From Candidatus Bathyarchaeia archaeon (GTDB lineage Archaea > Thermoproteota > Bathyarchaeia > Bathyarchaeales > Bathycorpusculaceae): a DNA stretch of 64,000 nt. The notes below the pieces were generated by a model. The model was not told where the DNA came from, made no database searches, and worked only from the letters and a program-made list of their open reading frames with translations. The stretch is taken from NCBI GenBank assembly GCA_038882975.1, contig JAVZNE010000005.1, forward strand, positions 1-64,000. Reading direction: 5' to 3'. Both the position numbers and the translations under genes were made by a program. This document shows, in pieces, positions 8,495 to 36,940 of this stretch (its first letter is position 1; each line of letters opens with the position of its first letter).

Positions 8495-8522
8495 TTACTT
8501 CCCCAATTAAATAAGGCATTAA

Positions 8523-19834: not shown

Positions 19835-20119
19835 AAACCGTACTCGTCCCAAGAACCTTATTCAAGGCAAACGCTAATATTCATTTCGAAAAGCTGCTCA
19901 TTTGAGCCTTTCTAAATGGGGAAATAGAAAATGATAAACAAAAAACCTAGAGGGACTAGTCAATTTATGACCGATTGCTTATTCCCCTTTGAGCGATTCT
20001 TAGGGTACATGCAGAAAATGCAGAGTTATGATAAACTTAAAATAATTGAATGAACAGTTGTGTAAACGAATCCACTAAAAATAGGGAAAATTTAGAGTTT
20101 AAAGTATGGAGGAAAAGGG

Positions 20120-21427
20120 ATGAGCAGACCTGAAAAACCTCATCTAAACCTGGTGATTATGGGGCACGTTGACCATGGAAAGTCAACAACAACCGGGCAT
20201 ATGCTGTACTTGGCCGGAGTTGTCGACGAAAGAACAGTGAAGCAGTACGAAGAGGAAGCCAGAAAACTTGGAAAGGAAACTTTCAAGTTTGCATGGATTC
20301 TCGACAACCTAAAGGAGGAGCGGGAAAGAGGCCTAACAATAGACCTGCGATTCCTAAAATTTGAAACGAAAAAATACTACTTCACAATCATTGATGCGCC
20401 AGGCCACAGAGACTTCGTTAAAAACATGATCACCGGCGCAAGCCAAGCCGACGGCGCCATACTATTCGTCTCAGCCAAAAGAGGAGAATTCGAAGCCGGC
20501 ATAGGACCCGGCGGACAGACAAGGGAGCACGCCTTCTTGGCCTTCACCTTGGGCGTTAACCAGCTTGTTGTAGCCATCAACAAGATGGACGACCCGACAG
20601 TTAACTGGAGTCAAGAACGCTACAACGAGGTCAAAAACGAAGTTTCAAGGATGCTCAGAATGGTCGGCTATAAGGTTGAGAAGATTCCCTTCGTGCCAAC
20701 TTCCGGTTGGACAGGCGACAACCTTGTCAAGCCCAGCGACAAAATGCCATGGTACAAGGGACCAACCCTAATAGAGGCATTAGATGTTTTTGAAATCCCG
20801 CCAAAGCCGTTGGATAAGCCTCTGCGAATTCCGATACAAGACGTTTACAGCATAACGGGTGTGGGAACAGTGCCCGTCGGCAGGGTTGAAACAGGAGTTC
20901 TAAAAGAGGGTGACACGGTCATATTCATGCCAGCCAACAAACAGGGCGAGGTGAAGTCTATTGAAATGCACCACACAAGGATTCCGAGGGCTGAGCCTGG
21001 CGACAACATAGGCTTCAACGTTAGGGGCATAGCCAAAACAGACATCCGCCGTGGAGACGTCTGCGGACATGTCAACAACCCGCCAACAGTGGCAAGGGAG
21101 TTTATAGGCCAAATAATCGTCATATACCACCCAACAGCCATAGCCGCCGGCTACACGCCAGTACTCCACTACCACACTGGGCAGATGGCATGCAGATTCA
21201 CGGAGCTAATAAGGAAGATTGACCCACGCTCCGGACAGGTTGTCGAGGAAAAGCCATCCTTCCTAAAGACTGGGGACGCTGCACTTGTGCGAATGGAACC
21301 TTTACGCCCAATAGCCATCGAAACCTACTCAGAGTTTTCAGAGCTTGGAAGGTTCGCTGTAAGAGACATGGGCACAACCATAGCAGCTGGCATAGTGAAG
21401 GAAATAACCAAAAAGGGGCTGCAATAG
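20120..21427 (+). CDS. tuf: Translation elongation factor EF-1alpha
   Basis: [47 protein letters not shown]. Confidence 0.98.
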
Positions 21428-21605
21428 CCTCCATCCTCTCTTTTTATCTATCAAATTTTAAGCTAAGCCTATTTTCTCTTGAAAGTAGGATTTATAAGGC
21501 GCTGATGGAAGGCTAAATTGGAGATTTGAGGAAAATACGTCCTTGTCAGCAAGTACAGAATTGAATTTTGAAAATAAAAAAGGTAGGGGATGAAAGTTGG
21601 GCGTT

Positions 21606-22646
21606 TTAGACTAATAGTTTCCCGTTTTCCATTATTTTTTTGCCATCAAATATCAAGGTGGGCTTTGGAATTATAAAGTCTTGATGGAGGTCTGATGAAA
21701 CCTTTCCTCCCATATGAGAGTTGTCGCCTATCGCAAGATGGACGGTGCCTCTAATTTTCTCTGACTCGAGAACGTTATCTGGACGTTTCGCATTCGGGTT
21801 TGTGCCCACTCCAAGCTCTGCCAGATTTCTGCGGGAAACATAAGGCTCGGTTTTCTTGCTGAAATCTAGTAGGCTTCTGAACTCGTCGCCTACCTTTCCG
21901 CCTCCAATAATTTCCGTCACGTAGCCATTCTTGAATGTCAGTGTCATTTTTTCCTTTAGGTCTGGATACCAGTTCGGCTCAACCACAAGTTTCCCATTTG
22001 CCGTGCCTTCAACAGGAGCACAGTAGGCTTCCCCAGAGGGCAAATTGCCCCAAGAACCTTTTTCCGTGAATATTCCAGCGTCGACCATGCCATTTCTGCC
22101 TTTCAGGCTGAAGGTTATGTCTGTACCCCCAGGCGACGTTATTCTAGCCTCATTAGCTTTGGTCATCAAGTCGGCGATTTTCTTTGTTTCCTTTTCTATT
22201 TGGCGATAATCTGCTGCCATTGGTCCGCCCGGATAGAACATTTCAGCCAAGAACATTGGCATGCTAGCGACGCGGGCTCCGGCTTTGCAGGCGTTAACCC
22301 TCGCATCTGTGTGGGTTAGCGAATATGTTGTTATGGCGATAACGATATCTGCAGCCTTCATTTTCTCCTCAACTTCTTTTCCAGGATAGGTTCCATGTTT
22401 GCCAACCGATGGATAAACAAAGAAATCCACTTTGGAGTCTGGAAACTTTTCAGCTGCGATTTCGCTTACCATTTTTGCTAGTAGCGATCTTGTTATTGCG
22501 TCTGCAATTTTCCCGCTGTCTTTGGATTTCCACTCCTCTGCTGTTGGAATATCTGTTAAGACTAGGACTTTTTCGCCTTTCTTTAGTCCCATATTCACTT
22601 TGAACATGTTAACGACGCCGTCGACGAGCTTCTCCTTCTCGATCAT
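21606..22646 (-). CDS. M29 (aminopeptidase T)-like metallopeptidase
   Basis: NLPSGEAY.AP, AELGVGTN, LESEKIRGTVHLAIG, HQD. Confidence 0.85.
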   Translation of the reverse strand: MIEKEKLVDGVVNMFKVNMGLKKGEKVLVLTDIPTAEEWKSKDSGKIADAITRSLLAKMVSEIAAEKFPDSKVDFFVYPSVGKHGTYPGKEVEEKMKAADIVIAITTYSLTHTDARVNACKAGARVASMPMFLAEMFYPGGPMAADYRQIEKETKKIADLMTKANEARITSPGGTDITFSLKGRNGMVDAGIFTEKGSWGNLPSGEAYCAPVEGTANGKLVVEPNWYPDLKEKMTLTFKNGYVTEIIGGGKVGDEFRSLLDFSKKTEPYVSRRNLAELGVGTNPNAKRPDNVLESEKIRGTVHLAIGDNSHMGGKVSSDLHQDFIIPKPTLIFDGKKIMENGKLLV

Positions 22647-22679
22647 AGGCTTTCACCATTACAGCGCTGAGGTGGAATT

Positions 22680-23726
22680 CTAGTATTTGCCGAGTTTCTT
22701 GGCAAGTTTGGCGAGTTCTGGCTCAACAACCCTACCGTTGTCAAATATCTGTTTTCCATCAAGCCAAACGGATGTGTTTAGGCATATGCCGTCAGTGTGT
22801 GAGGGTGCTGGAATTGGTTCGCCTCCAGTTAGCATTTGACCAACGTAGCCTATTCCCCACTCCGTGCATCCCCAAACTCTCTCGTCTTCAACAATGTTTC
22901 CGGTGAGTTTTGCTCCAGGGTTAACACCGTAGCAGACGTGGGCCATTCGGAGCATCAACGGGTCATTGAAGCTTTTGAGCCATGCCTCGAAGGTGCGGGC
23001 TTCTTCTCCACCCTCTATTTTTTGGATAACCCCTTCCTTAACATGGAGTTTTATTGGAGTTTTAACAAGTCCTACTGGTGGAACAACAGAGCCGTCAAAG
23101 ACTATCACACCATTTATGGACTTAAATATTGGAGACCAGCCTATTTGTCCGCCGAGCATATGAGACCCAGGAGTGTCCGCATACCCCACTTCACAGATTA
23201 CGGGCCTCTTGGGGTCGTTGTCAAATTCTACATTTCCACCAGCCGGGGTGGTCATTTTAACATGTTTTGCCGCCTTTGTCATTTCCACCAGTCTCTCTTG
23301 GAACTTTGCAAGGGTTGGCAGGTCAACTCTGGCTATCACTCTAACCATCATGTCAACGTTCATGCCCACCAAGCACATGTGGCGGATTTTCTTGTTCTCT
23401 TTCATCACTCTTTCGTAGGGTGTTGAGTATAAGAGCCATTCGTTGTTGAATTCAACCCACGCATCCGCATTGTTTAAGGCTGCCGTTAACGCTTCCACTG
23501 GCAGCATCGGGTCTGCAGCTTTTCCAACACCCAAAGGCGATGCCAGCCAAATAACCATCGGTTTTGCTCCGGCTGCAAAGGCTGCTCCAGCCGTTGCATC
23601 AACAACTCGCGGGTCGGACTCCGTGTCTGCTGTTATGACGAAGGTTTCGCCGGGTTTCAGTTTGAACATTTCTGTGGCAAGTTTGTGCGCCGCCTTAGCC
23701 AACTCATACTCATAATACTGTGGCAC
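22680..23726 (-). CDS. M29/NicX-like metallohydrolase (paralog A)
   Basis: AHVCYGVNPGA.LTGNIVEDERVWG..WGIG and PSHTDG; GTG start after GGAGGT. Confidence 0.85.
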   Translation of the reverse strand: MPQYYEYELAKAAHKLATEMFKLKPGETFVITADTESDPRVVDATAGAAFAAGAKPMVIWLASPLGVGKAADPMLPVEALTAALNNADAWVEFNNEWLLYSTPYERVMKENKKIRHMCLVGMNVDMMVRVIARVDLPTLAKFQERLVEMTKAAKHVKMTTPAGGNVEFDNDPKRPVICEVGYADTPGSHMLGGQIGWSPIFKSINGVIVFDGSVVPPVGLVKTPIKLHVKEGVIQKIEGGEEARTFEAWLKSFNDPLMLRMAHVCYGVNPGAKLTGNIVEDERVWGCTEWGIGYVGQMLTGGEPIPAPSHTDGICLNTSVWLDGKQIFDNGRVVEPELAKLAKKLGKY

Positions 23727-23840
23727 TTTTATACCTCCAGAAAATCCATATGTAAGGATGTCACTTTATAAAGCTTATGAAAACACTTTTAGAGGATATT
23801 ATCATAGATGTTTAATCAAAACTCGGGTTGGTTAGAAGGT

Positions 23841-24383
23841 ATGGATGTATTTGAGGCAATAAAAGGCAGGAGAAGTGTTAGAAGGTATAAAAAGGAACCC
23901 GTTGACAAAGAGTTGGTGAAGAGATTATTGGATGCTGCCCGTTGGGCGCCTTCAGGAGGAAACATCCAGCCATGGCTTTTCATAGTCATCGATGATCCCA
24001 GATTGCTCGACGTAGTGCGAAAGATTTCTCCAGGATATTTCGGGGAGGCTCCTCTTGCAATACTTGTCTGTTCAAATAAGGAGAGAGCCTACAAAGTCGG
24101 AGGTGTTCTCGGTAGGGACTATCTCACGGTCTGCGACTGCGCGATGGCTGTGCAGAACATGCTTTTGGCAGCATACGCACTTGGCTTAGGAACATGCGTT
24201 GTGAAATCATTTTCGCATACGGCAATAAAGGAGTTGCTTGCCATTCCAGAAGGCGTGGAGCCAGAACTTTTAGTGATAGTGGGTCACCCAGATCAAATGC
24301 CTAAACCGCCGCCTAGAATTCCACTAAATGAAATAGTCTACCTAAACAAGTATGGCGAAAAGTTTCCTAATCTGGAGGATTAA
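23841..24383 (+). CDS. Nitroreductase-fold protein, cyclodipeptide oxidase subunit A (AlbA)-like
   Basis: RRSVRRY, WAPSGGNIQPW, ISPGYFGEAP, CAMAVQNMLLAAYALGLGTC..SF, LAIPEGVEP; start placed at ATG 23841 after GAAGGT. Confidence 0.85.
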   Translation: MDVFEAIKGRRSVRRYKKEPVDKELVKRLLDAARWAPSGGNIQPWLFIVIDDPRLLDVVRKISPGYFGEAPLAILVCSNKERAYKVGGVLGRDYLTVCDCAMAVQNMLLAAYALGLGTCVVKSFSHTAIKELLAIPEGVEPELLVIVGHPDQMPKPPPRIPLNEIVYLNKYGEKFPNLED

Positions 24384-24385
24384 GC

Positions 24386-24694
24386 ATGAGCGACGCAAAA
24401 CCCAGTGGAGATGATTACCTTTTCGAAATTGCAGTTTTTCTAGCCACAAGCGCCTTGAACTGCATCGACGAACCTCCACTCTACGGCCCCTTCAGATTGC
24501 TAGACGCGCTAAGCAAAGTTGCAGATTTACCGAAATATGCGCCATGCCTAAAAGAGGACCCATTCCTTCAAAAAATAAAAGCCATTGTAGATGAAAAAAA
24601 GTTTCTCGTAATGTATAACGCGGGGGAATTCAGGAAAGCAATAGACGAAATTGTCAAAATGTTTGCAGAGGAACTTAAAAGGAGATATCTATAG
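24386..24694 (+). CDS. DUF6092 protein, cyclodipeptide oxidase subunit B (AlbB)-like
   Basis: EIAVFLATSA..C.DEPPLYGPFRLLD matches the AlbB-type (L/I)A.(Y/F)L.(S/T)S...EP..YG..R..D signature as recalled; starts 2 nt after the AlbA-like stop. Confidence 0.8.
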   Translation: MSDAKPSGDDYLFEIAVFLATSALNCIDEPPLYGPFRLLDALSKVADLPKYAPCLKEDPFLQKIKAIVDEKKFLVMYNAGEFRKAIDEIVKMFAEELKRRYL

Positions 24695-24851
24695 AAAAAG
24701 CAAATGAAGGCGGCGGATGATTTTCCAAAACATAAACATGCTTGCCTAAGGTAATGGCTCAGCAAAACCTCCTTTTCTTTTCATGAACTGGAGTTACGCC
24801 TTTAAGAAAGATTATTAATGATTATTTGCTTCAATGGTTTGAGGGAAGGTC

Positions 24852-27296
24852 ATGCTTGGAGCGGCATACTTAAGTGACAGCCAAAAGATTGAGGAGGAAG
24901 AAGAGAGAAGAAAAGCTGCCATAAAACCAATAAATGAAAGAATAGCGAGGCTTAGAGAAGAAAGCGTTAAGGCTGAGGTCAAACTTTCGGTTGAGAGGGC
25001 AAAGCTGATAACAGAATTTTACAAAAGCGATGAAGTTAAAGGTAAGTCCATCCCTGTCCAACGCGCATTAGCATTCAAACACTTATTGGAACACGTTTCT
25101 CTGCCCCTTGAAGATGGCCAGCTAATAGTTGGCTTAAGAGGGACAGGCCCCAAAGAAGTCCCCACTTACCCAGAAATATGCGTCCACTCAATGGAGGATC
25201 TAGAAGTTTTAGATTCACGGAAGAACATGCCCTACAAAGTGGATGAGAAAGCTAAGGAAGCCTACAAAAATGAAATTATTCCTTTCTGGAAAGGCAGATC
25301 GATGAGGGATATAATATTTAGTAACTTACCCCAAGAGTGGAAAGACGCCTATGAGGCTGGCGTGTGGACCGAGTTCATGGAGCAGAGGGCGCCTGGACAT
25401 ACAGCAGGTGGGGAAAGAATCTTCAAGATGGGTCTTTTAGCGATAAAAGAGGAGATTAAGCAGCGGATGGAAGGGCTTGATCCATGCGACCCAGAATATT
25501 ATGAGAAGATGGAAGAGTTGAAAGCCATGAATATAGTGGCTGACGCGTTGATAATTTATGCGGGGCGTTATGCTGAAAAATTGGAAAAGATGGCGGAGAA
25601 GGAGACAAATTCTCATAGAAAAGAAGAGCTTACGCAGATGGCGCAAATATGCCGCTGGGTTCCGGCGAACGCTCCCCGAACTTTTTGGGAAGCCCTCCAG
25701 CATTATTGGTTTATTCATGTTGGCATAACTTACGAAACAAACCCGTGGGACTCGTTTACTCCTGGACGGTTAGACCAGCATCTTTACCCGTTCTATAAAC
25801 GGGATGTTGAGGAGGGAAGACTCACAAGGGAGAGGGCAAAAGAGCTCCTCGAAGCCTTCTGGGTTAAATTTAATAATCAGCCGGCGGTTCCTAAGGTTGG
25901 TGTGACATTAGAGGAAAGCTTCACCTACAACGACTTCTCAAAAATCAACATTGGAGGATTAAAAGAGGACGGCGCAGACGCAGTTAATGAACTCTCATAC
26001 CTAATTCTAGAAGTACTAGATGAAATGCGTACAATGCAACCCAACACGGCTGTTCTGATAAGTGGCAGAAATCCAAACAGTTTTCTCATAAAAGCTTTAA
26101 AGGTTGTAGCTCCAGGATTTGGTGAGCCCCCAATATTCAACTTCGACGGCGCAATTATAAAGATGCTTCGACAGGGCAAAACGTTAGAGGACGCACGCAA
26201 ATGCGGAGTAAGCGGATGCGTAGAAACAGGAGCCTTTGGAAAAGAGGCGTACATATTGACGGGCTATTTAAACCTTCCAAAAATCCTCGAAATAACATTA
26301 AACAATGGAGTGGACCCAAGGACAGGGAAGAGGATTGGCATAGAAACCGGCGACCCGAGGAATTTCAAAAACTTTGAAGAATTTTTCAACGCCTTTTTGA
26401 AGCAGTTAAAACACTTTGTTTCATTAAAGGTTAAAGGAAACGACATAATAGAAACCCTTTACGCTAAATATTTACCAGTTCCATTTTTGTCACTCTGGAT
26501 TGAGGATTGTGTAAAAAATGCAAAGGACTACAATTGCGGTGGAGCGAGATATAATACAAGCTACATTCAGGTTGTTGGATTAGGAACCATCACGGATTGT
26601 TTAGCCTCGCTGAAATATAACGTGTTTGAGAAGGGAAACTTTGCAATGGGTGAAGTTCTCGAGGCCCTTAACAGAAATTATGAAGGATATGAAGTGATGC
26701 GTCAAATCTTCTTGAATAAAACTCCGAAATATGGTAATGACGATGATTATGCTGATGAAATTGCAAAGAGAATAGTTAACGCTGTTGTTGAGTTGATAGA
26801 GAGCTATCCTTTAACACCGATAAGAAAGGCTTCCCGAAGGGCCTATTTCCTCCCAACAACGGTGCACATATATTTCGGCAAAGTAACTGGAGCAACACCA
26901 GACGGGAGAAAGGCTGGACAACCATTGTCTGAGGGCGTTTCTCCGGTTCAAGGAATGGATAGAAAGGGGATAGTTGCGGTCTTCAGATCAGTCTCAAAAA
27001 TTGACTGGGACAAAACAGGTGGCGCGTTGCTTAACCAGAAACTTAGTCCAGACTTAACAAGGGGTGAAGAAAACCTTGAAAAATTAGCTCATACCATTAG
27101 AACCTTCTTCGTAATGGGTGGACATCACGTTCAGTTCAATGTTGTAAGCACTGAGCTACTCCGTGAAGCGCAAAGACGCCCACAAGACTTTCAAGACCTA
27201 ATGGTCAGAGTGGCAGGGTACAGCGACTACTTTGTAAACCTTCCAAAGGGGCTTCAAGATGAAATAATTGCACGAACAGAACAGAGGGAGATTTGA
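24852..27296 (+). CDS. hypD: Glycyl radical enzyme, trans-4-hydroxy-L-proline dehydratase
   Basis: HypD-type active-site segments FMEQRAPGH, WDSFTPGRLDQ, ESFTYNDF, SGCVE, EAYILTGY, LPTT, plus the glycyl radical motif RVAGY. Confidence 0.9.
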   Translation: MLGAAYLSDSQKIEEEEERRKAAIKPINERIARLREESVKAEVKLSVERAKLITEFYKSDEVKGKSIPVQRALAFKHLLEHVSLPLEDGQLIVGLRGTGPKEVPTYPEICVHSMEDLEVLDSRKNMPYKVDEKAKEAYKNEIIPFWKGRSMRDIIFSNLPQEWKDAYEAGVWTEFMEQRAPGHTAGGERIFKMGLLAIKEEIKQRMEGLDPCDPEYYEKMEELKAMNIVADALIIYAGRYAEKLEKMAEKETNSHRKEELTQMAQICRWVPANAPRTFWEALQHYWFIHVGITYETNPWDSFTPGRLDQHLYPFYKRDVEEGRLTRERAKELLEAFWVKFNNQPAVPKVGVTLEESFTYNDFSKINIGGLKEDGADAVNELSYLILEVLDEMRTMQPNTAVLISGRNPNSFLIKALKVVAPGFGEPPIFNFDGAIIKMLRQGKTLEDARKCGVSGCVETGAFGKEAYILTGYLNLPKILEITLNNGVDPRTGKRIGIETGDPRNFKNFEEFFNAFLKQLKHFVSLKVKGNDIIETLYAKYLPVPFLSLWIEDCVKNAKDYNCGGARYNTSYIQVVGLGTITDCLASLKYNVFEKGNFAMGEVLEALNRNYEGYEVMRQIFLNKTPKYGNDDDYADEIAKRIVNAVVELIESYPLTPIRKASRRAYFLPTTVHIYFGKVTGATPDGRKAGQPLSEGVSPVQGMDRKGIVAVFRSVSKIDWDKTGGALLNQKLSPDLTRGEENLEKLAHTIRTFFVMGGHHVQFNVVSTELLREAQRRPQDFQDLMVRVAGYSDYFVNLPKGLQDEIIARTEQREI

Positions 27297-28218
27297 GACG
27301 CCGGAAAAACATGTGGAAGGAAGAATATTTGACATAATGCGGTACGCAATACACGATGGACCAGGAGTTAGAACAACAGTTTTTATGAAGGGCTGTCCAC
27401 TACAATGCTGGTGGTGTCACAACCCCGAGGGAATCTCAAGCACCAACGACCTCGCATATTTTGATTACAAATGCATAGGTTGTAAAACATGCCTAAAAAA
27501 TTGCCCCACTAAAGCCATAACATTTGAGGGGGATAAACAGATCATCCACAGAGAGGCTTGCACAAAATGTTGTGTTTGCGCAGAAGCATGTCCAACGGGA
27601 GCTCTAAAAATAATAGGGCGTACAATCAGCCTAGAAGAGTTGATAGCCACCATTGAGAGAGACGTTATACTATATGATGCATCGGGTGGAGGGGTAACCT
27701 TCTCCGGAGGTGAACCTCTTTTCCAACCACTGTTCCTAAAGGAGGCCATAAAAGAGTGTAAGAACAGGAAAATTCATGTGGCATTGGATACCTCTGGATA
27801 TGCCCATCCAGAAGTTTTTAGGTCCATTGCAGAAAATGTTGATCTGTTTCTTTACGACTTAAAGCTGTTGAACGACCTTGATCATCGCAAATATACAGGT
27901 GTCTCAAACAAGTTCATCTTAGATAATCTTATTCGCCTTGTGAAGGACGGGAGGGGGAAAGATATCATCCTCCGATTCCCTGTGGTGCCCCAGATCACCG
28001 ATACGGATGAAAACATTAAGAACTTGTTGGAGTTTCTCAAGCTTTTAAATGGTGTTGAGGAGGTTGACTTGCTGCCCTTCCATGATATAGGCGAAAAGTA
28101 CATGCGTATTGGGAAAAGATATTTGATGACATTCCGTAGCGCACCCTCAAAGGAGAAACTTATCCACATAAAAGAGAAAATTGAGGCTATGGGCCTTCGG
28201 GTTAAGATTGGAGGCTAA
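27268..28218 (+). CDS. Glycyl-radical enzyme activating protein (radical SAM with ferredoxin insert)
   Basis: HDGPGVRTTVF.KGCPLQCWWCHNPE, two CxxCxxC motifs, GGVTFSGGEP; real start may be GTG 27313. Confidence 0.93.
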   Translation: MHEQNRGRFETPEKHVEGRIFDIMRYAIHDGPGVRTTVFMKGCPLQCWWCHNPEGISSTNDLAYFDYKCIGCKTCLKNCPTKAITFEGDKQIIHREACTKCCVCAEACPTGALKIIGRTISLEELIATIERDVILYDASGGGVTFSGGEPLFQPLFLKEAIKECKNRKIHVALDTSGYAHPEVFRSIAENVDLFLYDLKLLNDLDHRKYTGVSNKFILDNLIRLVKDGRGKDIILRFPVVPQITDTDENIKNLLEFLKLLNGVEEVDLLPFHDIGEKYMRIGKRYLMTFRSAPSKEKLIHIKEKIEAMGLRVKIGG

Positions 28219-28252
28219 ATTTTAGAGTAAACATTTTTGAAATCGGGTGAGT

Positions 28253-29224
28253 TCACTTCGTGTAAAGGTGGCATGCCACGTAATGGTCTGCCTCTGTCGC
28301 TATAAACTCTGGTTCTTTTGTTTTGCATATGTCGGTTACATAGGGGCATCTGGTGTGGAAGCGGCATCCCGGTGGAGGATTAATTGCGCTTGGTACTTCA
28401 CCCCTTGACGTTATTCCTCTAGGCTTAAGTTTCTCTTCTTCATCTGTTAGCACAGGCACGGATGAAAGTAGCATCTGGGTGTAAGGATGTAATGGTTTTT
28501 GGAAGAATGTTGCAGTTGGGGCAAACTCAACAATTTTCGCCAAATACATTATGGCAACCCTTGAGGCAACATTCCTCATAAGGCTTAGATCATGTGTTAT
28601 AAACAAGTATGAAAGATTTAGTTCTTGCTGAAGCTTCATTAAAACCCGAATAATCTTAGCTTGGATTGACACGTCAAGGGCGGATGTAGGCTCATCAAGC
28701 ACTATAAATGAGGGGCTTGTCGCTATGGCACGGGCAATTGCAATTGCTTGCCGTTCCCCTCCACCCAAGTCTTTCGGTCTCCTCTGCATGAACTTTTCTG
28801 CAGGCAACTCCACAGCTTCAAGGAGCGATGCAACTTTTTTGTCAAGTTCCTCGTGACTTTTAACCAGACCGTGAATTTTTAGAGGCAGCCCAACTATTTC
28901 CTTCACAGTTTTTGTGGGATTTAAGGAAGAAGCGGGATCTTGGAAGACTATTGCCATATCTTTTTTCAAATGTTTGGGCCGCTTTTTGGCATGGAATGAA
29001 ATGTCTTCTCCTTTAAAGATTATCTTTCCGGATGTGGGAGTGTAAATTCCCATTATTACATATCCTGTTGTGCTTTTCCCCGAACCAGACTCTCCCACAA
29101 GGCCAAAAGTTTCGCCTGGTTTTATTGCAAAGCTTATTCCGTCAACGGCTCTTACTGTTCCAAAAGTTGTTTTGAAATATTTTACCAAGTTGTCTACAAC
29201 GAGTAAGCCTTCATTTTTCTCCAT
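28253..29224 (-). CDS. Oligo/dipeptide ABC transporter ATP-binding subunit (OppF/DppF)
   Basis: GESGSGKS, LDEPTSALD, PLHPYT, GCRFHTRC. Confidence 0.93.
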   Translation of the reverse strand: MEKNEGLLVVDNLVKYFKTTFGTVRAVDGISFAIKPGETFGLVGESGSGKSTTGYVIMGIYTPTSGKIIFKGEDISFHAKKRPKHLKKDMAIVFQDPASSLNPTKTVKEIVGLPLKIHGLVKSHEELDKKVASLLEAVELPAEKFMQRRPKDLGGGERQAIAIARAIATSPSFIVLDEPTSALDVSIQAKIIRVLMKLQQELNLSYLFITHDLSLMRNVASRVAIMYLAKIVEFAPTATFFQKPLHPYTQMLLSSVPVLTDEEEKLKPRGITSRGEVPSAINPPPGCRFHTRCPYVTDICKTKEPEFIATEADHYVACHLYTK

Positions 29225-29230
29225 GCATTT

Positions 29231-30214
29231 TCACCTTTTGCCATATAGCCAACAAGCAACTTCATGTCCCTTGCCATTCACGTCGAAGAATGGCGGTGCT
29301 TCCTTTTGGCATATCTCTTTTGCATAATCACAGCGGGGGTTGAATCTGCACCCGGGTGGGGGATTCACATAATCCGGAATATGCCCTCTAATACCCTCTG
29401 AGAATCCTTCGCCAGTTAATTTTGGCACGGATTGCAAGAGTCCTTGCGTGTATGGGTGTAGGGGTTCTGAAAATAGCTCATTTGTCTCCGCCGCCTCAAC
29501 CATGTTTCCAGCGTACATCACGTAAACTCTGTCAACAGTTCCCCTCACAGCTCCTAGGGCGTGTGAAATAAGGATGACTGATAACTTTCTTTCTTCAACA
29601 AGGTTTTTTATTAAACGTAAAACTTGGTCTTGAATTGTAACGTCAAGGTTTGTTGTCGGTTCATCTGCTATTAGAAGGTCCCTCGCCGCGGTAAGGGACA
29701 TAGCTATGCATACCCTCTGCCTCATGCCCCCGCTTAGCTGGAATGGGTAACTGTCTAAAACCCTTTCAGGGTCTGGTAACGCCACTTCTCCAAGAACCTT
29801 TAAGCACATTTCATGAATCTTCTCTTTTGTCAGTTCCTCGCTACTGGAGCCAACTGAGTATTTGATGACATCTCCAAGCATATCCTTCACTTTGAAAACA
29901 GGGTTAAGTGCCGCCGTTGGGTCTTGAAAAATCATTGTTATATGCTTTCTTCTAACTTCTGCCAACTCTCTATCGCCCATTCTAAGCACATCTTTCCCCT
30001 TGAAATTTATGCATCCTCCCTTGATTATGGCGTTTGAAGCTAGAATCCTCAAAATAGCCCTCATGGTTGTTGTCTTCCCACAGCCGGATTCGCCGATCAA
30101 CCCAACCTTTTCTCCCTCTCTAACCCTTAGGTTTACCCCATTAAGCACTTTCAACTCGCCTAGATAGGTCTTATAGTTTACGTAGAGATCCCTGATTTCT
30201 AATAGCGGTTTCAG
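29231..30214 (-). CDS. Oligo/dipeptide ABC transporter ATP-binding subunit (OppD/DppD), probable CTG start
   Basis: GESGCGKT, LSGGMRQR, ADEPT; conserved N-terminus KPLLEIRDLYVNY lies upstream of the track start and begins at CTG 30214. Confidence 0.9.
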   Translation of the reverse strand: MKPLLEIRDLYVNYKTYLGELKVLNGVNLRVREGEKVGLIGESGCGKTTTMRAILRILASNAIIKGGCINFKGKDVLRMGDRELAEVRRKHITMIFQDPTAALNPVFKVKDMLGDVIKYSVGSSSEELTKEKIHEMCLKVLGEVALPDPERVLDSYPFQLSGGMRQRVCIAMSLTAARDLLIADEPTTNLDVTIQDQVLRLIKNLVEERKLSVILISHALGAVRGTVDRVYVMYAGNMVEAAETNELFSEPLHPYTQGLLQSVPKLTGEGFSEGIRGHIPDYVNPPPGCRFNPRCDYAKEICQKEAPPFFDVNGKGHEVACWLYGKR

Positions 30215-30217
30215 AGT

Positions 30218-31108
30218 CTATCTCGCCTCCTCAACGAATATGTCTCGTATACCGTCACCCAGAAGGTTGAAACCCAAAATTATGATGGATATAGCGATGG
30301 CTGGGAAAATGCTTATCCACCAGGCCCCTGGCATGTATTGTCCACCCTCAGCAACCATGGTGCCGAGATCTGGTGTCGGTGGTTGAGCGCCAAGACCAAC
30401 GAAACTTAACGCTGAACCAAGAAGAATAACCCAGCCAACATCAAGCGTCACTTTCGTAAGTATAGGCCCAAGACAGTTTGGCAGTATCTCCTTAAATATT
30501 ATATGGAATGGGCCAGCGCCCATTACTTCAGCAGCTTGTACAAAATACTCGTTTCTTAAAGCCGACGCCGTGTTATACACCATTCTTGTATACCATGGCC
30601 ACCACATAAGTGATACCGCTATCATCGAATTAAACACGCTTGGCGTTAACACTGCTGCTATTGCCAGAGCTAAAACCAAGGGTGGAACTGCAATAAATAT
30701 GTCTGAAATTCTCATAATCACTGTGTCTATCCATGTCCCACGATAATAGCCTGCAATCAACCCTAAAACCACACCTACGGGAACAACGAGGGCCAGAACA
30801 ACTGCAGCCATCGTTAGTGAATAACGGAAACCAAAGATTGTTCTACTTAAGACGTCTCTTCCAACATGATCGGTACCGAATAAATATTTGGAACTTGGAG
30901 GTAAGAAACGTTCACCTAGACCCGTATAAAGCTCAGCATGCTTTGGATAAGGAGCTATCAATGGAGCTGCGATAGCTGTAACAATGGTGCCCACCGAAAT
31001 TATCAAGCCAACGATTGATAGCGGACTCCGAGAGAATCTATACCATTTCCTTTTCAATTCAAATCTTGCTTCTATTTCTCTAAGTTTCTTTAGAATTGGT
31101 GTTTTCAT
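30218..31108 (-). CDS. ABC transporter permease (OppC/DppC)
   Basis: PPS.KYLFGTD..GRDVLSR, EYFVQAA..MGA, LSFVGLG.QPP. Confidence 0.93.
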   Translation of the reverse strand: MKTPILKKLREIEARFELKRKWYRFSRSPLSIVGLIISVGTIVTAIAAPLIAPYPKHAELYTGLGERFLPPSSKYLFGTDHVGRDVLSRTIFGFRYSLTMAAVVLALVVPVGVVLGLIAGYYRGTWIDTVIMRISDIFIAVPPLVLALAIAAVLTPSVFNSMIAVSLMWWPWYTRMVYNTASALRNEYFVQAAEVMGAGPFHIIFKEILPNCLGPILTKVTLDVGWVILLGSALSFVGLGAQPPTPDLGTMVAEGGQYMPGAWWISIFPAIAISIIILGFNLLGDGIRDIFVEEAR

Positions 31109-32133
31109 TATTCTCCCCTTTCCATTAGTCGTATTCTCGGATCTAAATAAGCCACTAAAATATCGACAACCACGTTTACGAATGCGTAAATTATTCCTAT
31201 TACTAGGACGAGGGCAACTATGCCATTCAAATCCGTGTTTAGGAGGAATCTTATGCCTAGTTTAGAGAAGCCTGGCCAGTTAAAAACCATCTCGACAAGG
31301 AAGGCGTTTGCCAACATTGCAGCTATGTCCATTCCAAGGACGGTAACAGCGGGGATCACAGATGGTTTTAGCAAATACTTAAACATTATAAGTCTTTCAG
31401 GGAGACCTTGCGCCATAGCCATCGAAATGTAGTCTTTATCTTTATTCTCCACCATTCCCGACCTAATTATCCTAGCGTCTTGTAACATTCCGCCGAGACA
31501 TAGCGCCAAAGCAGGTAATATCATATGCCACAAGACATTAAGAAAAGAATCAAAGCGCCCTGAAATTAGACAATCCAATGTGTAAAAGTTTGTAATTTTT
31601 GGAGGTTGGGGAAAACCTCGCGAAATAACCCCTGATATTGGGAACCACTTAAGTATATGCCCAAAAATCAATTGGAGTATTATTGCCATTACAAAGGCTG
31701 GAATTGATATCCCGATGTAGGAGATCACTCTTACAACGTTGTCGGGCCATTTATAACAGTATCTACCTGCAATGACACCAAGCAGAAAAGCTCCTATAAC
31801 CTGAAAGATGGCGGCTAAGAATATTAGCTCTAGTGAAGCTGGGAGATATTCAAGAATATCTTCGGTAACACTGCGTCTAGTAAGAATGGAATAGCCTAAA
31901 TTCCCATGAAATACATCCGCTAACCAGTAAAAGTATTGTTCGTATAAGGGTTTGTCAAGACGTAGCTGCTTTTTTGTTTGCTCATAAACCCACGGCTCAA
32001 CCCTTGGTCCAAGCATCATTTTGACAGGATCCCCGGGCAATACCCTCGCCAAAACGAAGACGAGTACTGATAGCCCAAATAACGAGAAAACTATTAGAAA
32101 TGTTCTCTTGATTATGTATGTAGACATTTTCAT
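31108..32133 (-). CDS. ABC transporter permease (OppB/DppB)
   Basis: LPGDP, LDKPL..QY, GNLGYS, VE.VFNWPG, AYLDPRIR. Confidence 0.93.
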   Translation of the reverse strand: MKMSTYIIKRTFLIVFSLFGLSVLVFVLARVLPGDPVKMMLGPRVEPWVYEQTKKQLRLDKPLYEQYFYWLADVFHGNLGYSILTRRSVTEDILEYLPASLELIFLAAIFQVIGAFLLGVIAGRYCYKWPDNVVRVISYIGISIPAFVMAIILQLIFGHILKWFPISGVISRGFPQPPKITNFYTLDCLISGRFDSFLNVLWHMILPALALCLGGMLQDARIIRSGMVENKDKDYISMAMAQGLPERLIMFKYLLKPSVIPAVTVLGMDIAAMLANAFLVEMVFNWPGFSKLGIRFLLNTDLNGIVALVLVIGIIYAFVNVVVDILVAYLDPRIRLMERGE

Positions 32134-32259
32134 GGATTATCACTGTGGACTTTTACCATTAGAAAACGATGCAGAATTTAAAAGTTTTTCCCAACCGAGA
32201 TAGCTTCATACATCACGTAAGTTGGAAGAGAAGGTTTAGACAGAAATAGAAAAGAGGGA

Positions 32260-33942
32260 TTAAGGTGGAAGAACTTTCCAGAATCTGAAGGTTCTTTCAT
32301 AGCCCATTATCATTGTGGCGTTGTTTGGATTTTCAGCAGCTGGGATTTTGACGAATTCCCATTGAGCTATTGTTGTTTTGTAATCGTATATGAATAGGCT
32401 TGGACAGAGATTCATGATTTCCCTTTGAATTTGAGCGTATTTTTGATATCTTTGCTGTGTGTCTACGGTGGCTAGTGCATCCTCTATCATATGGTCGATG
32501 GTCGCATTTTGCAGCCATTCACCTTGTTCCCATGTTCCGCAGGACTTTGAGTGATACCTTGACTCGAGCAGCGAGCCGGCTTCAGGATAGTGGGCGGCTA
32601 CAAGTATGTCGTACATGTGGGCGCATGTTTCAAGACTGCCCATCTCTTCAACAACCTTCGACCAGAAAGTCTTAACCGGCTGAATTATCAACCCTATTTG
32701 TCTAGCAGCCTCCGCTAACAGCAGGGCGTCCAATTCTCTTTCTGGGACATCTGCGATCCAGTGGAACTCTATCGTGTAGTCTGTATTATTGATTATGCCG
32801 GGGTAGTATTTGGACCTTTGTAGACATTGCAAAGCGAGAGTTTTGTTGGTGTAGTATATTTGACAATTAACGTATCCGGGGGTGCCCTTCGGCACGCATG
32901 ATGTCGCTTTGGTATATCTTGAATATATTTGCTGCATCATTTTATCGTATGGACATATGTAGGCTATAGCCTTCCTCACCCATATATCGTCTAGTGGTGG
33001 CTTCTTAGTGTTCATGTATATGTAATATTCACTCATCTCTGGCCAGGCAACCCTTTTTATACCTTCAATCTTGTCGAGAGCGTCGAGGGTCTCCTCTGGA
33101 AGCCACGCATCAGTAACTTCAAGCTCACCATTTACCATCATGGCCAGTTCGGTGGACGGACTACCGGTTGCCGTCCACATCACTGTGACTTCGTCCGGTG
33201 CATCTGGATCTACATAACCCCAATAATCAGTGAAAAGTTCGTAGCGGTACCACTCCTCTGCTCTGCAATCCACAACTTTATAGGCGCCAGAACCAGCATC
33301 GTGAGTTCTCAGCCACTCAGTCGCATAATCGCCATTTGTGCCGTAGGGGCCTGGTGTTTTGATGTGGGCCATGACTTCAGCCTTGTCAAGAATATATAGC
33401 CTTATACATGCAGACAGGAATGGCCCGAAAGTCTTCTTTAGGGTAATCTTCACCGTATAGTCGTCTCCGGGGACGACTTCCGTCTTATTCACGTATGGAG
33501 AGAAGAGGTATGCAAAGCCTTGGCCTATGGTCAATAGCCTGTCTAAGCTGAATTTAACATCCTCGGCTTTTAATTCTCGTCCGCTATGGAACTTAATGCC
33601 TTGTCTTATTTTAAAGGTGTAAACTAATCCATCATTTGAAACGGTCCAGCTTTCCGCAACGTGGGCTTTAACACCACCACCCTCGCCGACAGTCTTCGGC
33701 CACAGTAGTGGGTCATACAGATTGCAAAGGCTCGTTGTGCTTAATTCGTCGTTCCCGATGGCTGGATCTATTTTGTTAGGCCAAGAGAATCCAACTCTGA
33801 TAGCCGTCCTTTTCGGAGTAGGCGCAGGACCAGCTTGGAAGAATGCAAAATATATGCCGACAGCCAAAGCAATGATGATTATTATTGCAATAATGGCAGC
33901 TTGCAATTTTGTTATGGCAGATTTGTTAACAAACACCTTCAA
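32260..33942 (-). CDS. ABC transporter substrate-binding protein, family 5, with class III-like signal peptide
   Basis: NLYDPL, AESWTVS.DG..YTFKIR.G.KFH, GSGAY, KPPLDD..VRKAI; N-terminus KSA/ITKLQ then hydrophobic stretch; start placed at TTG 33942 after GGAGG. Confidence 0.92.
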   Translation of the reverse strand: MKVFVNKSAITKLQAAIIAIIIIIALAVGIYFAFFQAGPAPTPKRTAIRVGFSWPNKIDPAIGNDELSTTSLCNLYDPLLWPKTVGEGGGVKAHVAESWTVSNDGLVYTFKIRQGIKFHSGRELKAEDVKFSLDRLLTIGQGFAYLFSPYVNKTEVVPGDDYTVKITLKKTFGPFLSACIRLYILDKAEVMAHIKTPGPYGTNGDYATEWLRTHDAGSGAYKVVDCRAEEWYRYELFTDYWGYVDPDAPDEVTVMWTATGSPSTELAMMVNGELEVTDAWLPEETLDALDKIEGIKRVAWPEMSEYYIYMNTKKPPLDDIWVRKAIAYICPYDKMMQQIYSRYTKATSCVPKGTPGYVNCQIYYTNKTLALQCLQRSKYYPGIINNTDYTIEFHWIADVPERELDALLLAEAARQIGLIIQPVKTFWSKVVEEMGSLETCAHMYDILVAAHYPEAGSLLESRYHSKSCGTWEQGEWLQNATIDHMIEDALATVDTQQRYQKYAQIQREIMNLCPSLFIYDYKTTIAQWEFVKIPAAENPNNATMIMGYERTFRFWKVLPP

Positions 33943-34006
33943 ATTTCCTCCAGACAAACTGTACCTAACAAATTGTTATATAAAACTTTCGTCATAAATG
34001 TGCTGG

Positions 34007-34735
34007 CTAGGGTGTGTATCCTTCATCACTGGGTGGACTTTCATAGCCATAGAGTTTACAATGGGACAATTTCAATTTTTGATGTAGATCGGCTAGCATC
34101 TCAGCGTATTTCCATGAGATAACAACGGGATCGAGAACAGGAACATTAACTTTCTCCATAAGTTCCTTCACGAAACCGGACTCACCAGTGCATCCCAGGA
34201 CTATCACCTCTGCGCCGTCTTCTTCAACGGCTTTTTTAGCCTCGTTGATTATAGCTTGTTTCAACATTTCGGGTTCCTTGAGCATCCTTGGAACTGTGAA
34301 GTTTATCACCCTGAAAGAGGCAAGCTTCCTCTCAATTCCGTATAAGTACACGTTGCTTTCCATTTTGGGAATCCATTTTCGCCTTCCAACGATTATTGAA
34401 AATTTGTGGCCGAGTGTTGCGGCAACATGCATCGTGGCCTCTGCAACGCCGATAACTGGAATGGAAACTATCTCTCTAGCTTCTCTAAGGCCCGGATCAT
34501 AGAAACACCCTATGATCACGGCGTCGTATCCCTCATTTTCAGCCCATTTAACCCACTTTAATGTTTCGTCCATGTTTAGATGCTCATAGTAATGGTATTC
34601 CAGGTGCACTGGTCCGCTGTTTAGGTGCACCACTTTAACCTCAACATCTGGCCTTTTTACTTGGTTAATTGTTTTTAGAATGTGTTCGTCGAAGGCGTCT
34701 GTCCCCACGGGGTTTATGAACAATATCTTCAACAT
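34007..34735 (-). CDS. Asp/Glu/hydantoin racemase family protein (hydantoin/allantoin racemase-like)
   Basis: KILFINP, two catalytic Cys motifs IIGCFYDPGL and LGCTG. Confidence 0.9.
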   Translation of the reverse strand: MLKILFINPVGTDAFDEHILKTINQVKRPDVEVKVVHLNSGPVHLEYHYYEHLNMDETLKWVKWAENEGYDAVIIGCFYDPGLREAREIVSIPVIGVAEATMHVAATLGHKFSIIVGRRKWIPKMESNVYLYGIERKLASFRVINFTVPRMLKEPEMLKQAIINEAKKAVEEDGAEVIVLGCTGESGFVKELMEKVNVPVLDPVVISWKYAEMLADLHQKLKLSHCKLYGYESPPSDEGYTP

Positions 34736-34861
34736 GGAGCAACCTCCCAGTACTATTTTGTAGAATGCCCATTTAAGGTTAAGCCAATTTCACAAGGACG
34801 CCGCGAAAATTTAATTAGGATATCCGGCGAAAATGGTGCTGTCAAATGTGGAGGTATAAAG

Positions 34862-35905
34862 ATGCCGCAGTATTATGAGTATGAGTTGGCTAAGGCAGCG
34901 CACAAACTTGTCACGGAGATGCTGAAGCTGAAGCCTGATGAGACAATTGTTATAACAGCAGACACGGAGTCCGACCCGCGAGTTGTTGATGCAACGGCTG
35001 GAGCAGCCTTTGCTGTTGGAGCGAAACCGGTGGTTATTTGGATCGCCTCACCTCTTGGCGTGGGTAAAGCTGCAGACCCAATGCTGCCTGAAGCTTTGGG
35101 GGCTGCTTTATGTAAGGCTGACGCATGGGTTGAATTCAACAATCAATGGATTTTCTATTCAGGCATGTACGAGAAGGTTTTGGAGACGAACAAGAAGATA
35201 AGGCACTGCTGCTACGTGGGCATGAACGTTGACATGATGGTCAGGGTCATAGGCAGGGTTGACATGAAAACTCTTGACGCCTACATGACCAGGCTGCATG
35301 GGTTAACTAAGGCGGCAAAACATGTTAAAATGACCACTCCAGCCGGTGGAAACGTAGAATTCGACAACGATCCCAAGAGGATATATACTAAGGACGTTGG
35401 GTATGCAGACACTCCAGGGTCCCACATGCTCGGCGGACAAATAGGCTGGGCGCCAATCCACGAAACCATAAATGGTGTGATAGTCTTTGACGGCTCTATA
35501 AATCCGCCCCTAGGCTTGGTTAAGCAGCCCGTAAAACTCCATGTCAAGGCTGGCAAAATAGTGAAGGTTGAGGGCGGAGACGACGCTAGAGCTTATGAGG
35601 CATGGCTCAAAAGCTTCAATCACCCCGGCATGTTCAATGTCGTCCATGTTTGCTATGGATGCAACCCGGGCGCCAAACTAACAGGCAACGTCGTCGAGGA
35701 TGAAAGGGTTTGGGGTTGCACGGAGTGGGGAGTAGGCTACTTAGGCACGTTCCTTACTGGAGGGAAACCCATTGATGCGCCATCACATTCAGACGGCATA
35801 TGCCTAAACACATCCGTTTGGCTTGATGGAAAACAGATATGGGATCAAGGAAGAGCGGTTGACCCGGAACTTGCAAAGCTAGCTAAGAAGTTGGGAAAGT
35901 TCTAA
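34862..35905 (+). CDS. M29/NicX-like metallohydrolase (paralog B)
   Basis: Highly similar to 22680-23726 over its full length (identical N-terminus MPQYYEYELAKAAHKL); ATG 34862 after GGAGGT. Confidence 0.88.
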   Translation: MPQYYEYELAKAAHKLVTEMLKLKPDETIVITADTESDPRVVDATAGAAFAVGAKPVVIWIASPLGVGKAADPMLPEALGAALCKADAWVEFNNQWIFYSGMYEKVLETNKKIRHCCYVGMNVDMMVRVIGRVDMKTLDAYMTRLHGLTKAAKHVKMTTPAGGNVEFDNDPKRIYTKDVGYADTPGSHMLGGQIGWAPIHETINGVIVFDGSINPPLGLVKQPVKLHVKAGKIVKVEGGDDARAYEAWLKSFNHPGMFNVVHVCYGCNPGAKLTGNVVEDERVWGCTEWGVGYLGTFLTGGKPIDAPSHSDGICLNTSVWLDGKQIWDQGRAVDPELAKLAKKLGKF

Positions 35906-35936
35906 AAATCATTTTCCCTCCTTTTCCTTTTTCTGC

Positions 35937-36488
35937 TTATTTGGTTTCACGCAATCTTCTGCGTGCTCGTAATCTTCTTGGTTTTGCTAAAATGCCGTAG
36001 AATAGTACGCCTACACCTAACAGCAATAAGAGCGTTCCTAGCGACGAGTATGGATGAAGCACCTGTATAATTTTCACACTTTTCTTCGCGTACAAAAAGC
36101 CGGAGAGAATAACCGGCCCTGTTCCTTCATTTATTATCTCAACTTGATACGTGCCCTTCCCTGTGACGTTGACTCGCTGTATTATGTTATTTCCATAATC
36201 CTCAAATAATATCGGATCTGTTGTTATAGGATTCCCAAACGGGTCGCGTCCAACATTTCCAACTTTTACTCGTACGTTGTTTGAAGCAGATATGTTTATC
36301 TCGAAAAAGTCGCCTTCCTCCATTTCAGAGGCGAAAATGGCATTGTTATACTCGCTTAAAGTTTCGTTATCAAAAATTTTGTCGTTTTTGGGCAACTCTT
36401 TCACGTAAGATATTGTTGTTGAAAATCCCATAAAACAGATTGCAGCAATGATAAGGGCTATAGCGCAAATTATAACTACTTTGCGGAT
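35937..36488 (-). CDS. Membrane-anchored hypothetical protein, probable ATC start
   Basis: In-frame extension upstream of the track start gives a signal/TM segment (RKVVIICAIALIIAAICFMG) preceded by GGAGGA; C-terminal TM plus Arg-rich tail. Confidence 0.7.
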   Translation of the reverse strand: MRKVVIICAIALIIAAICFMGFSTTISYVKELPKNDKIFDNETLSEYNNAIFASEMEEGDFFEINISASNNVRVKVGNVGRDPFGNPITTDPILFEDYGNNIIQRVNVTGKGTYQVEIINEGTGPVILSGFLYAKKSVKIIQVLHPYSSLGTLLLLLGVGVLFYGILAKPRRLRARRRLRETK

Positions 36489-36524
36489 GGCTGTTCCTCC
36501 GGTAATTCCTATTTTCCATTACTT

Positions 36525-36845
36525 TTATTCGTTTTTCTCCTCTTCTTCGTTTATCGGTTTTGTGGAGATCTCCCTTATTAGGGGTTCTTGTTTGCCGCCT
36601 TCAATTTCTATTTCTGCTCCTGGATATTGCTGTTGAAGCCTTCTTTTTAGGGCGTTTACATCCACATCTTTTCCAACTTTCGCCTTGACCTTTGTGCCTT
36701 CTGGTGTTTGGGTTACGCTTATGGAGTAGCCGCTTGCAATTTCGCCTTCTGGGAATTCTTTGAAAAACTCATCTATTTCATCAAACACGGAACTGCTGAA
36801 AAGCTCGTCTATGAGGCTTCTTCTCCGCTTTTTCTCAGACGGCAC
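36525..36845 (-). CDS. Hypothetical protein
   Basis: Coding-like ORF; GTG 36845 after GGTGAGG; GYSISVTQTPEG resembles N-terminal regions of archaeal small HSPs, but no alpha-crystallin domain seen. Confidence 0.75.
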   Translation of the reverse strand: MPSEKKRRRSLIDELFSSSVFDEIDEFFKEFPEGEIASGYSISVTQTPEGTKVKAKVGKDVDVNALKRRLQQQYPGAEIEIEGGKQEPLIREISTKPINEEEEKNE

Positions 36846-36940
36846 AGACCTCACCTAAATTGAAAGCGTGATGGCAGTGGCTTAAAAATTTTAATTAGCC
36901 ACTATGGGCTATTTAGGGGCTGTAAGGCGGAAGATGGTAA

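Follow-up and report, generated by a model that had tools for sequence, protein, structure and literature searches.

An AlbAB-like flavoenzyme gene pair with aspartate at the flavin-linked position, found beside a hydroxyproline dehydratase gene in a Bathyarchaeia genome

The A/B gene pair and its flavin site

We analysed a stretch of 64,000 nucleotides from Candidatus Bathyarchaeia archaeon (assembly GCA_038882975.1, contig JAVZNE010000005.1, positions 1 to 64,000 of the forward strand; here called the window), in which two adjacent genes, A and B, encode relatives of the two subunits of the flavoenzyme cyclodipeptide oxidase (CDO) and stand next to a gene for the glycyl radical enzyme HypD. 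The genome comprises 1.42 Mb on 15 contigs, is 94.7% complete and contains one DUF6092 gene and one PFL-like gene. A DNA sequencing run labelled a hot springs metagenome contains 0.99 of its sequence words and may be where it comes from. Gene A (23841..24383, forward strand) encodes a CDO-A-like subunit of 180 residues with a nitroreductase fold, and gene B (24386..24694, forward strand) a CDO-B-like subunit of 102 residues. The open reading frame (ORF) of A has an alternative start at 23808; the start at 23841, which gives the 180-residue protein, agrees with the N-termini of 23 homologues. The stop codon of A (TAA, 24381-24383) is followed by the letters gc and then by the ATG of B at 24386, a spacing of 2 nt that was already given in the original prediction, and a GGAGGA motif is located inside the last codons of A.

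Family assignment was based on sequence, profile and structure comparisons. A matched the Pfam family PF00881 (E 1.1e-32) and B matched PF19585, that is DUF6092 (E 6.2e-20; 71.7 bits, cut-off 28.7), confirming the family on which the original prediction of an archaeal AlbA/AlbB-like pair had relied. Among PDB sequences the best matches of A were NdasCDO-A (9exv_A, 2.1e-30) and AlbA (8uc3_A, 4.9e-30), and a Foldseek search with its AlphaFold (AF2) model (predicted local distance difference test score, pLDDT, 93.7) returned 8uc3_A at the top (template-modelling score, TM, 0.88) with 9exv at TM 0.83-0.89, at identities of 36-40%. Because ordinary nitroreductases are nearly as similar in fold, the fold alone is not diagnostic, and it is the B partner that is. 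As a single sequence B matched AlbB weakly (0.0018 and 0.48); when 20 archaeal B sequences were combined in a profile, it had only two matches in the PDB, both of them AlbB chains (1.5e-11 and 1.9e-11). DUF6092 was present in 31 genomes of a phylum sample of 401, in which HypD scored above its cut-off in 14. Of 30 phylum loci, 29 had an A-type ORF directly beside B or fused to it, and the remaining locus is truncated by the end of its contig; natural fusions of A and B were found six times. In NCBIfam, the models for SagB and for the C-terminal part of FbiB matched A weakly, with scores far short of their cut-offs. The pair is a genuine relative of the two-subunit cyclodipeptide oxidase AlbAB, as had been predicted.

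The residues that define the active site of AlbAB could be traced in the archaeal proteins. Both motifs that had been noticed from the letters, SPG in A and EP..YG..R..D in B, proved to be conserved: SPG occupies residues 63-65 of A, with P64 and G65 invariant in 24 sequences, and in 20 B sequences E29, P30, Y33, G34 and R37 are invariant while D40 is present in at least 90%. Y33 corresponds to the catalytic tyrosine Y37 of AlbB, whose Y37F mutant is inactive according to the text of PMC11055893, and E29, P30 and R37 correspond to E33, P34 and R41; by our own reading of the profile alignment, M76 aligns with AlbB M78. In A, residues R10, R14 and R159 align with R24, R28 and R175 of AlbA, the arginines that contact the phosphate of flavin mononucleotide (FMN), and R10 and R14 are invariant in the 24 A sequences.

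The position of the covalent flavin link differs. According to the texts of PMC11055893 and PMC11760959, FMN is joined by an 8-alpha-S-cysteinyl bond to C115 in AlbA and to C121 in NdasCDO-A, whereas A of the window has Asp99 at this position, in VCDCAMAVQN, with Cys98 and Cys100 on either side. The conserved Asp column in a profile of 24 A sequences aligned with both C115 and C121, which bears out the earlier suggestion that an Asp between two Cys replaces the flavin-linked residue; since the AF2 model places residues 80-113 in one continuous helix, no insertion or deletion is expected and the ungapped register that equates Asp99 with C115 is sound. Asp occupies the C115 column in 30 of the 31 A-type sequences of the phylum, and the remaining one has His, matching a remark on four Thermoprotei proteins in the text of PMC11055893. 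A scan of 185,579 bacterial and archaeal species genomes with the A alignment yielded 80 loci, 39 of which were nitroreductase loci without a detectable B; Asp was found at this column in 41 of 41 B-bearing loci and Cys in none. Because Asp99 replaces the flavin-linked cysteine, the FMN bound by A would be expected to be non-covalent.

Two other readings of the pair bear on these points. One holds that A is an ordinary NAD(P)H-dependent nitro or flavin reductase and B an unrelated small protein, and it draws on the generic nitroreductases that follow closely behind AlbA, both in the PDB sequence search, where 4dn2 comes next (4.5e-26), and in the fold search (TM 0.83). It is exceedingly improbable given that B is a DUF6092 protein in which the FMN and active-site residues of AlbB are invariant, that the two genes are in every case neighbours or fused, and that AlbA and NdasCDO-A rank as the top two PDB matches of A by sequence, profile and fold alike. 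The other holds that FMN is covalently bound after all, through Cys100 or Cys98. Two cysteines do flank Asp99, a Cys at the Cys100 position is common to 13 of the 41 B-bearing loci, and a single-sequence HMMER alignment of A to AlbA opens a one-residue gap that pairs Cys100 with C115. That gap was reproduced neither by the profile alignment, which puts Asp on C115 and C121, nor by the alignment to 9exv_A, and since residues 98-100 lie within one predicted helix the neighbours of Asp99 would point elsewhere. Apart from such cysteines, the columns on either side of Asp99 hold mainly hydrophobic residues (V, I, A, M or L; a few sequences have S or T), and AlbA has L114 and V116 there. Of the 41 loci only 2 show the complete Cys98-Asp-Cys100 triplet, and in a published relative, whose identity is about 89% by eye, the counterpart of Cys98 is Ala. 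We regard a covalent link as highly improbable on this evidence.

The pair falls into a class that has already been described. Andreas & Giessen 2024 (PMC11055893) catalogued 274 A/B-type clusters, 241 of them (88%) without a cyclodipeptide synthase (CDPS), and the text of that paper reports that C115 is kept only in CDPS-linked CDO-A proteins, that 18 natural A-B fusions occur, and that the neighbours are enriched in hydantoin racemase (PF01177), DUF917, AroM, ABC peptide transporters and peptidases. The window pair shows the same synthase-less pattern: it lacks C115, it lies near a PF01177 racemase, an ABC peptide transporter and peptidase-like genes, and no match to the CDPS family PF16715 was found in the whole genome at its 94.7% completeness. 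Several Bathyarchaeota pairs are contained in the supplementary table of the same paper, among them row 208, which by eye differs from A of the window at about 20 of 180 positions (about 89% identical), and row 153, which by eye appears to be the same sequence as a locus of our scan (L054) with A 78% and B 87% identical to the window. The pair is thus a further member of a described, functionally orphan class, the class itself not being new. The mechanistic part of the original prediction is likewise in print in general form, as the text of PMC11055893 notes CDOs in anaerobes and suggests electron acceptors other than O2.

New here is the lead that the pair sits in a gene island for the breakdown of peptides and hydroxyproline. 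The main text of PMC11055893 contains no mention of glycyl, radical, hydroxyproline or pyruvate formate, and its text-readable supplements contain none of glycyl, PF02901, formate, M29 or PF02073; one PDF and the figures fall outside this comparison and may show neighbourhoods. Literature searches on DUF6092 by name and on Bathyarchaeia combined with hydroxyproline and glycyl radical found nothing, and a search on cyclodipeptide oxidase and hydroxyproline found nothing that looks related, judged from the listing.

Comparison with characterized enzymes places the pair more closely. It resembles AlbAB of Streptomyces noursei (8uc3, text of PMC11055893) and NdasCDO of Nocardiopsis dassonvillei (9exv, text of PMC11760959) in having adjacent genes, an A subunit of the nitroreductase fold with the FMN-phosphate arginines kept, and a DUF6092 B subunit with E-P..Y-G..R including the catalytic tyrosine. 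Enzymes of the AlbAB type are A2B2 filaments that dehydrogenate diketopiperazines with O2. Unlike them it has Asp99 at the site of the cysteinyl FMN bond and Gly40 in place of AlbA S54, its genome lacks a CDPS, its gene context is catabolic and not biosynthetic, and its host is an anaerobic archaeon, in which O2 is an unlikely acceptor; the genes for A and B overlap by 20-30 nt in CDOs according to the text of PMC11760959, as against the 2-nt gap here. More distant likenesses are the TOMM/SagB azoline dehydrogenases (named in the text of PMC11055893) and the C-terminal domain of FbiB, which also combine FMN with the nitroreductase fold. Common to them and the pair would be the making or reducing of a C=C bond and a hydride transfer, assisted by a tyrosine, at a carbon beside an amide; unlike the window pair, SagB-type and FbiB enzymes have no DUF6092 partner. 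We take the FbiB C-terminal domain to be a nitroreductase-fold dehydrogenase that makes or reduces a C=C bond.

The surrounding gene island

Downstream of B on the same strand lies the gene for HypD, trans-4-hydroxy-L-proline dehydratase, a glycyl radical enzyme of 814 residues (24852..27296). It scored 1165.1 bits on the NCBIfam equivalog NF043068 (cut-off 1100) and matched 6vxc_A from Clostridioides difficile at 6.4e-294. All 12 of the catalytic, substrate-binding and radical residues named for C. difficile HypD in PMC7077986 are kept (H160, D278, S334, D339, F340, C434, E436, Y450, T645, G765, R156 and K326; the 6vxc_A chain numbering was offset by +20 in this comparison), and for this reason the window enzyme should act on free trans-4-hydroxyproline. 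Action on peptide- or ring-bound hydroxyproline was considered and is disfavoured, as the residues binding the free amine and carboxylate are all kept. The C. difficile enzyme and that of the window thus share these residues and the equivalog assignment; the window host is archaeal, and archaeal HypDs have already been noted in PMC6219649. Unlike the C. difficile gene, hypD of the window has no adjacent proC, and none was matched in the genome. The original prediction had placed the pair in an anaerobe using an O2-sensitive glycyl radical enzyme; the neighbour is indeed such an enzyme, HypD, which fits an anaerobic host. The HypD gene overlaps by 29 nt with that of a radical SAM glycyl-radical-enzyme activase (27268..28218, forward strand), which scored 335.6 bits on TIGR02494 (cut-off 174) and 373.8 on the HypD-activase equivalog NF043069, under its cut-off of 425.

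Divergent from A, on the reverse strand, is a gene for a 348-residue metalloenzyme of the NicX fold, M29-like (22680..23726). The protein had no Pfam match; a profile of its family matched NicX in the PDB (7cn3_A, 3.1e-29, identity 23%), and its AF2 model (pLDDT 93.4) matched 7cn3 in Foldseek at TM 0.77, followed by the M29 aminopeptidases PepS, AmpT and AmpS. NicX is a 2,5-dihydroxypyridine 5,6-dioxygenase with the Fe(II) ligands His265, Ser302, His318 and Asp320 (PMC7910607), three of which are kept in the shared fold as H263, H310 and D312; Ser302 falls in a gap, and NicX Arg293 is not kept. Since a dioxygenase reaction would be implausible in an anaerobe, a hydrolytic role appears the better expectation for this protein. 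A second M29-like protein of 346 residues (21606..22646, reverse strand; PF02073 Peptidase_M29, 1.5e-08) is syntenic in three related Bathyarchaeia loci, L074, G401 and G402, which are described below.

The same three loci share with the window an Opp/Dpp-type ABC peptide transporter (28253..33957, reverse strand; Pfam BPD_transp_1 and SBP_bac_5), made up of two ATPases (28253-29224 and 29231-30154), two permeases with BPD_transp_1 matches (30218-31108 and 31108-32133) and a family-5 binding protein with an SBP_bac_5 match (32260-33957). Next to it are an Asp/Glu/hydantoin-type racemase of 242 residues (34007..34735, reverse strand; PF01177, 2.6e-42) and, on the forward strand, a third NicX-fold paralogue (34682..35905), which is 79% identical to the 22680-23726 protein, has a syntenic copy in G401 and no Pfam match. 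Its listed ORF has 407 residues, and its true start is probably near 34859, judging from the length of the 348-residue copy. A 104-residue ORF at 34188-34502 (forward strand) was dismissed as a shadow of the racemase gene on the opposite strand, and an Rfam scan of positions 20000-37000 at E values up to 0.1 gave no match. The island is bordered by housekeeping genes, EF-1-alpha upstream and purE/purC downstream.

Elsewhere in the window, an operon-like trio on the reverse strand (7511-10216) encodes the AcnX large subunit (8993-10216; PF04412, 2.2e-150), the AcnX swivel subunit (8523-8996) and an OCD/mu-crystallin protein (7511-8494). We take the combination of AcnX and OCD to be a route of cis-3-hydroxy-L-proline dehydratase and pyrroline-2-carboxylate reductase. 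A second, more distant AcnX on another contig (C6) could be a mevalonate-pathway enzyme.

Recurrence of the island and proposed function

The gene set of the window is found again in L074, G401 and G402: the NicX-fold and M29-like proteins, A, B, Opp, the racemase, HypD and the activase. In L074, whose A is 91% identical, the gene order is exactly that of the window, and G401 and G402 show the set in two further arrangements. G403 has a shorter set of the NicX-fold protein, A, B, HypD and the activase, with no Opp, racemase or second M29-like gene within the 15 kb fetched; its one-strand order is A, B, a proline-racemase family gene, AcnX, the activase and HypD, then OCD/mu-crystallin and DAO, an arrangement that reads as a hydroxyproline cluster. 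In G401-G403, all Bathyarchaeia with A about 70% identical, HypD lies 4.2, 8.7 and about 10.7 kb from A/B, so that the distance across the island-bearing genomes ranges from 0.2 to about 11 kb in four arrangements.

A phylogenetic tree of 14 HypD sequences combined that of the window with those of G401-G403 and of 10 of the 13 further phylum loci scoring above the cut-off; L074 was excluded by the ORF filter. The window HypD grouped with that of another family, f28 (support 100/99), and a separate clade (100/100) held G401-G403 together with G390, which belongs to the same family as the window. Identities show the same split, since the window HypD is 76-81% identical to the HypDs of families f28, f34 and f56 and 71% to that of f16 (loci L154-L166), as against about 60% to those of its own family and its syntenic relatives. 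These values suggest a lateral replacement. By the tree, two HypD lineages occupy different positions in one syntenic island, which argues for selection keeping HypD with the island. A/B itself may or may not take part in this association, and the recurrence of the island is seen among related genomes.

Loci farther afield gave a broader view of the neighbours of A/B. In family f28, a 458-residue FrhB/FdhB-like iron-sulfur flavoprotein with ferredoxin motifs and a TrmB domain is encoded directly upstream of A at four loci (L033-L036) and about 4 kb from A at a fifth (L039), making it a possible electron partner in that lineage; the window has no such gene. Two bacterial loci, one from Clostridia (L101) and one from Syntrophomonadaceae (L102), carry Opp ATPases and a permease 57-60% identical to those of the window alongside an A that is 42-43% identical, which hints that the transporter, or the entire module, was transferred between domains.

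We put at about even the chance that A/B is an AlbAB-type heteromeric dehydrogenase or reductase with non-covalent FMN, that its substrate is an imported ring or peptide of small size, and that it belongs to an oxygen-free catabolic island which, in this lineage, handles hydroxyproline as well. A and B would together form a two-subunit FMN-dependent enzyme of the synthase-less, catabolic-context AlbAB type, perhaps assembling into filaments, with FMN held non-covalently at the A-B interface and Tyr33 of B as the general acid/base. The reaction would move two electrons and two protons to or from a C-alpha/C-beta bond adjoining an amide carbonyl; the substrate is presumed to be a small cyclic peptide-like ring, a diketopiperazine or a related compound. 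O2 would not be the acceptor in a host that lives anaerobically and has a glycyl radical enzyme, and this would make the enzyme either a reductase of dehydro-rings or a donor to another electron partner. The pair would be part of an island for uptake and breakdown together with the Opp transporter and the hydantoin-type racemase, in which ring opening or peptide cleavage would probably fall to the two NicX-fold and the one M29-like metalloenzymes, and HypD would dehydrate the hydroxyproline released.

A more specific pathway, unlikely as it stands, would make A/B the oxygen-free redox step of an archaeal route that consumes cyclic dipeptides of proline and hydroxyproline: Opp would import the rings, the racemase and the NicX-fold proteins would process them, HypD would dehydrate hydroxyproline, and the flavoenzyme would either reduce a dehydro-ring or oxidise the ring with pyrroline-5-carboxylate (P5C) as acceptor. 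If true, ring oxidation with electrons passing to P5C would constitute an internal Stickland-type couple. The locus adds no new enzyme type; it offers a concrete, testable gene context for a class in which, according to the text of PMC11055893, about 88% of the catalogued pairs have no substrate, direction or acceptor assigned. This context narrows the first substrates to diketopiperazines and dipeptides containing proline or hydroxyproline, with P5C as acceptor, and the pair offers a thermophilic, oxygen-independent representative for biochemistry.

Several observations weigh against a role of A/B in such an island. The tie to a glycyl radical enzyme that the original prediction implied stands for a small Bathyarchaeia subclade and not for the other phylum loci examined: no glycyl radical enzyme or HypD was found in the flanks of the 30 other phylum DUF6092 loci (up to 10 kb fetched, less at contig ends), five other sampled genomes with both A/B and HypD have them on different contigs, and two Bathyarchaeia with an A that is 78% identical carry no HypD anywhere in the genome. 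The five island-bearing genomes are related, so that they stand for about two to four independent events and not five. Within the window, B and HypD are separated by 157 nt in which a T-rich stretch and an AT-rich box can be seen by eye, and HypD may for this reason be a separate transcript. A has Gly40 where AlbA has S54 (APSGGN against APTASN), a residue that according to the text of PMC11055893 hydrogen-bonds and supports the catalytic tyrosine and whose S54A change causes a 62-fold loss of activity; many archaeal relatives of A carry Ser there. The commoner neighbours of A/B elsewhere are DUF917/S-Me-THD, hydantoinase A and NCS1 permeases, besides ABC transporters, and the first three point to hydantoin-like rings over diketopiperazines.

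Some of these points fit an account in which A/B works only with widely conserved partners (the NicX-fold protein, the racemase and the peptide transporter) on a ring that has nothing to do with hydroxyproline, while HypD and its activase came by lateral transfer and share no more than regulation or habitat. We think this possible, if somewhat unlikely. A NicX-fold homologue stands next to A/B in 15 of the 80 scanned loci, several bacterial phyla included (among them Moorellaceae, Clostridia, Syntrophomonadaceae and Ignavibacteriales), a PF01177 racemase homologue occurs within the fetched flank of 21 of 110 A/B-type loci, HypD is near A/B at none of the 30 phylum loci, the window HypD groups with a distant family as an insert would, and the 157-nt gap follows B. 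This account is harder to reconcile with two HypD lineages at different positions of the same island, with the same-strand run in G403 from A and B through the proline-racemase family gene, AcnX and the activase to HypD, and with the AcnX and OCD genes at 7511-10216 of the window itself. Another account has A/B handle the HypD product, either taking over from ProC the reduction of P5C to proline or using P5C as the acceptor that replaces O2, and here the gene content of the window's genome (G000) is suggestive: proC had no match in it (14 of 14 reference genomes were positive in the control), no aldehyde-dehydrogenase-family (Aldedh) gene was found, and HypD follows A-B directly on the same strand. 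Across genomes the correspondence is lost. No match of ProC strength was found in 10 of the 14 HypD genomes (seven with none and three with matches only near 1e-6), and these divide into five with A/B and five without, four of the latter also lacking Aldedh. Both proC and Aldedh are absent from five HypD genomes (G000, G390, G204, G228 and G266), and only G000 has A/B; conversely, f28 genomes with A/B also have Aldedh, beside HypD in G106 and G074. A class-III aminotransferase flanks HypD in G228 and is another possible sink, and A/B is common without HypD. We consider a P5C-handling role quite improbable: A/B as a general substitute for ProC or P5C dehydrogenase was rejected, given the four HypD genomes that lack both as well as A/B and the f28 A/B genomes that have Aldedh, and the idea survives as a low-probability special case.

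Other features of the window

Outside the island, a primase-polymerase/D5-type helicase gene (645-3140, reverse strand) and a phage-type integrase with a ParB-like gene (49772-52621, reverse strand) look like remnants of integrated mobile elements. A 314-residue ORF (5758-6702, reverse strand) has a weak match to PF02932 (3.3e-07), the transmembrane region of neurotransmitter-gated (pentameric) ion channels. Two paralogous GTPases of the EF-2/EF-G type are encoded side by side and divergently at 41116-43335 (reverse strand) and 43512-45767 (forward strand). At positions 54000-62500 the GC content falls to 0.35-0.41, compared with about 0.44 elsewhere, and this region encodes two large NosD/beta-helix surface-type proteins, one of them with NlpC/P60 and SH3 domains.

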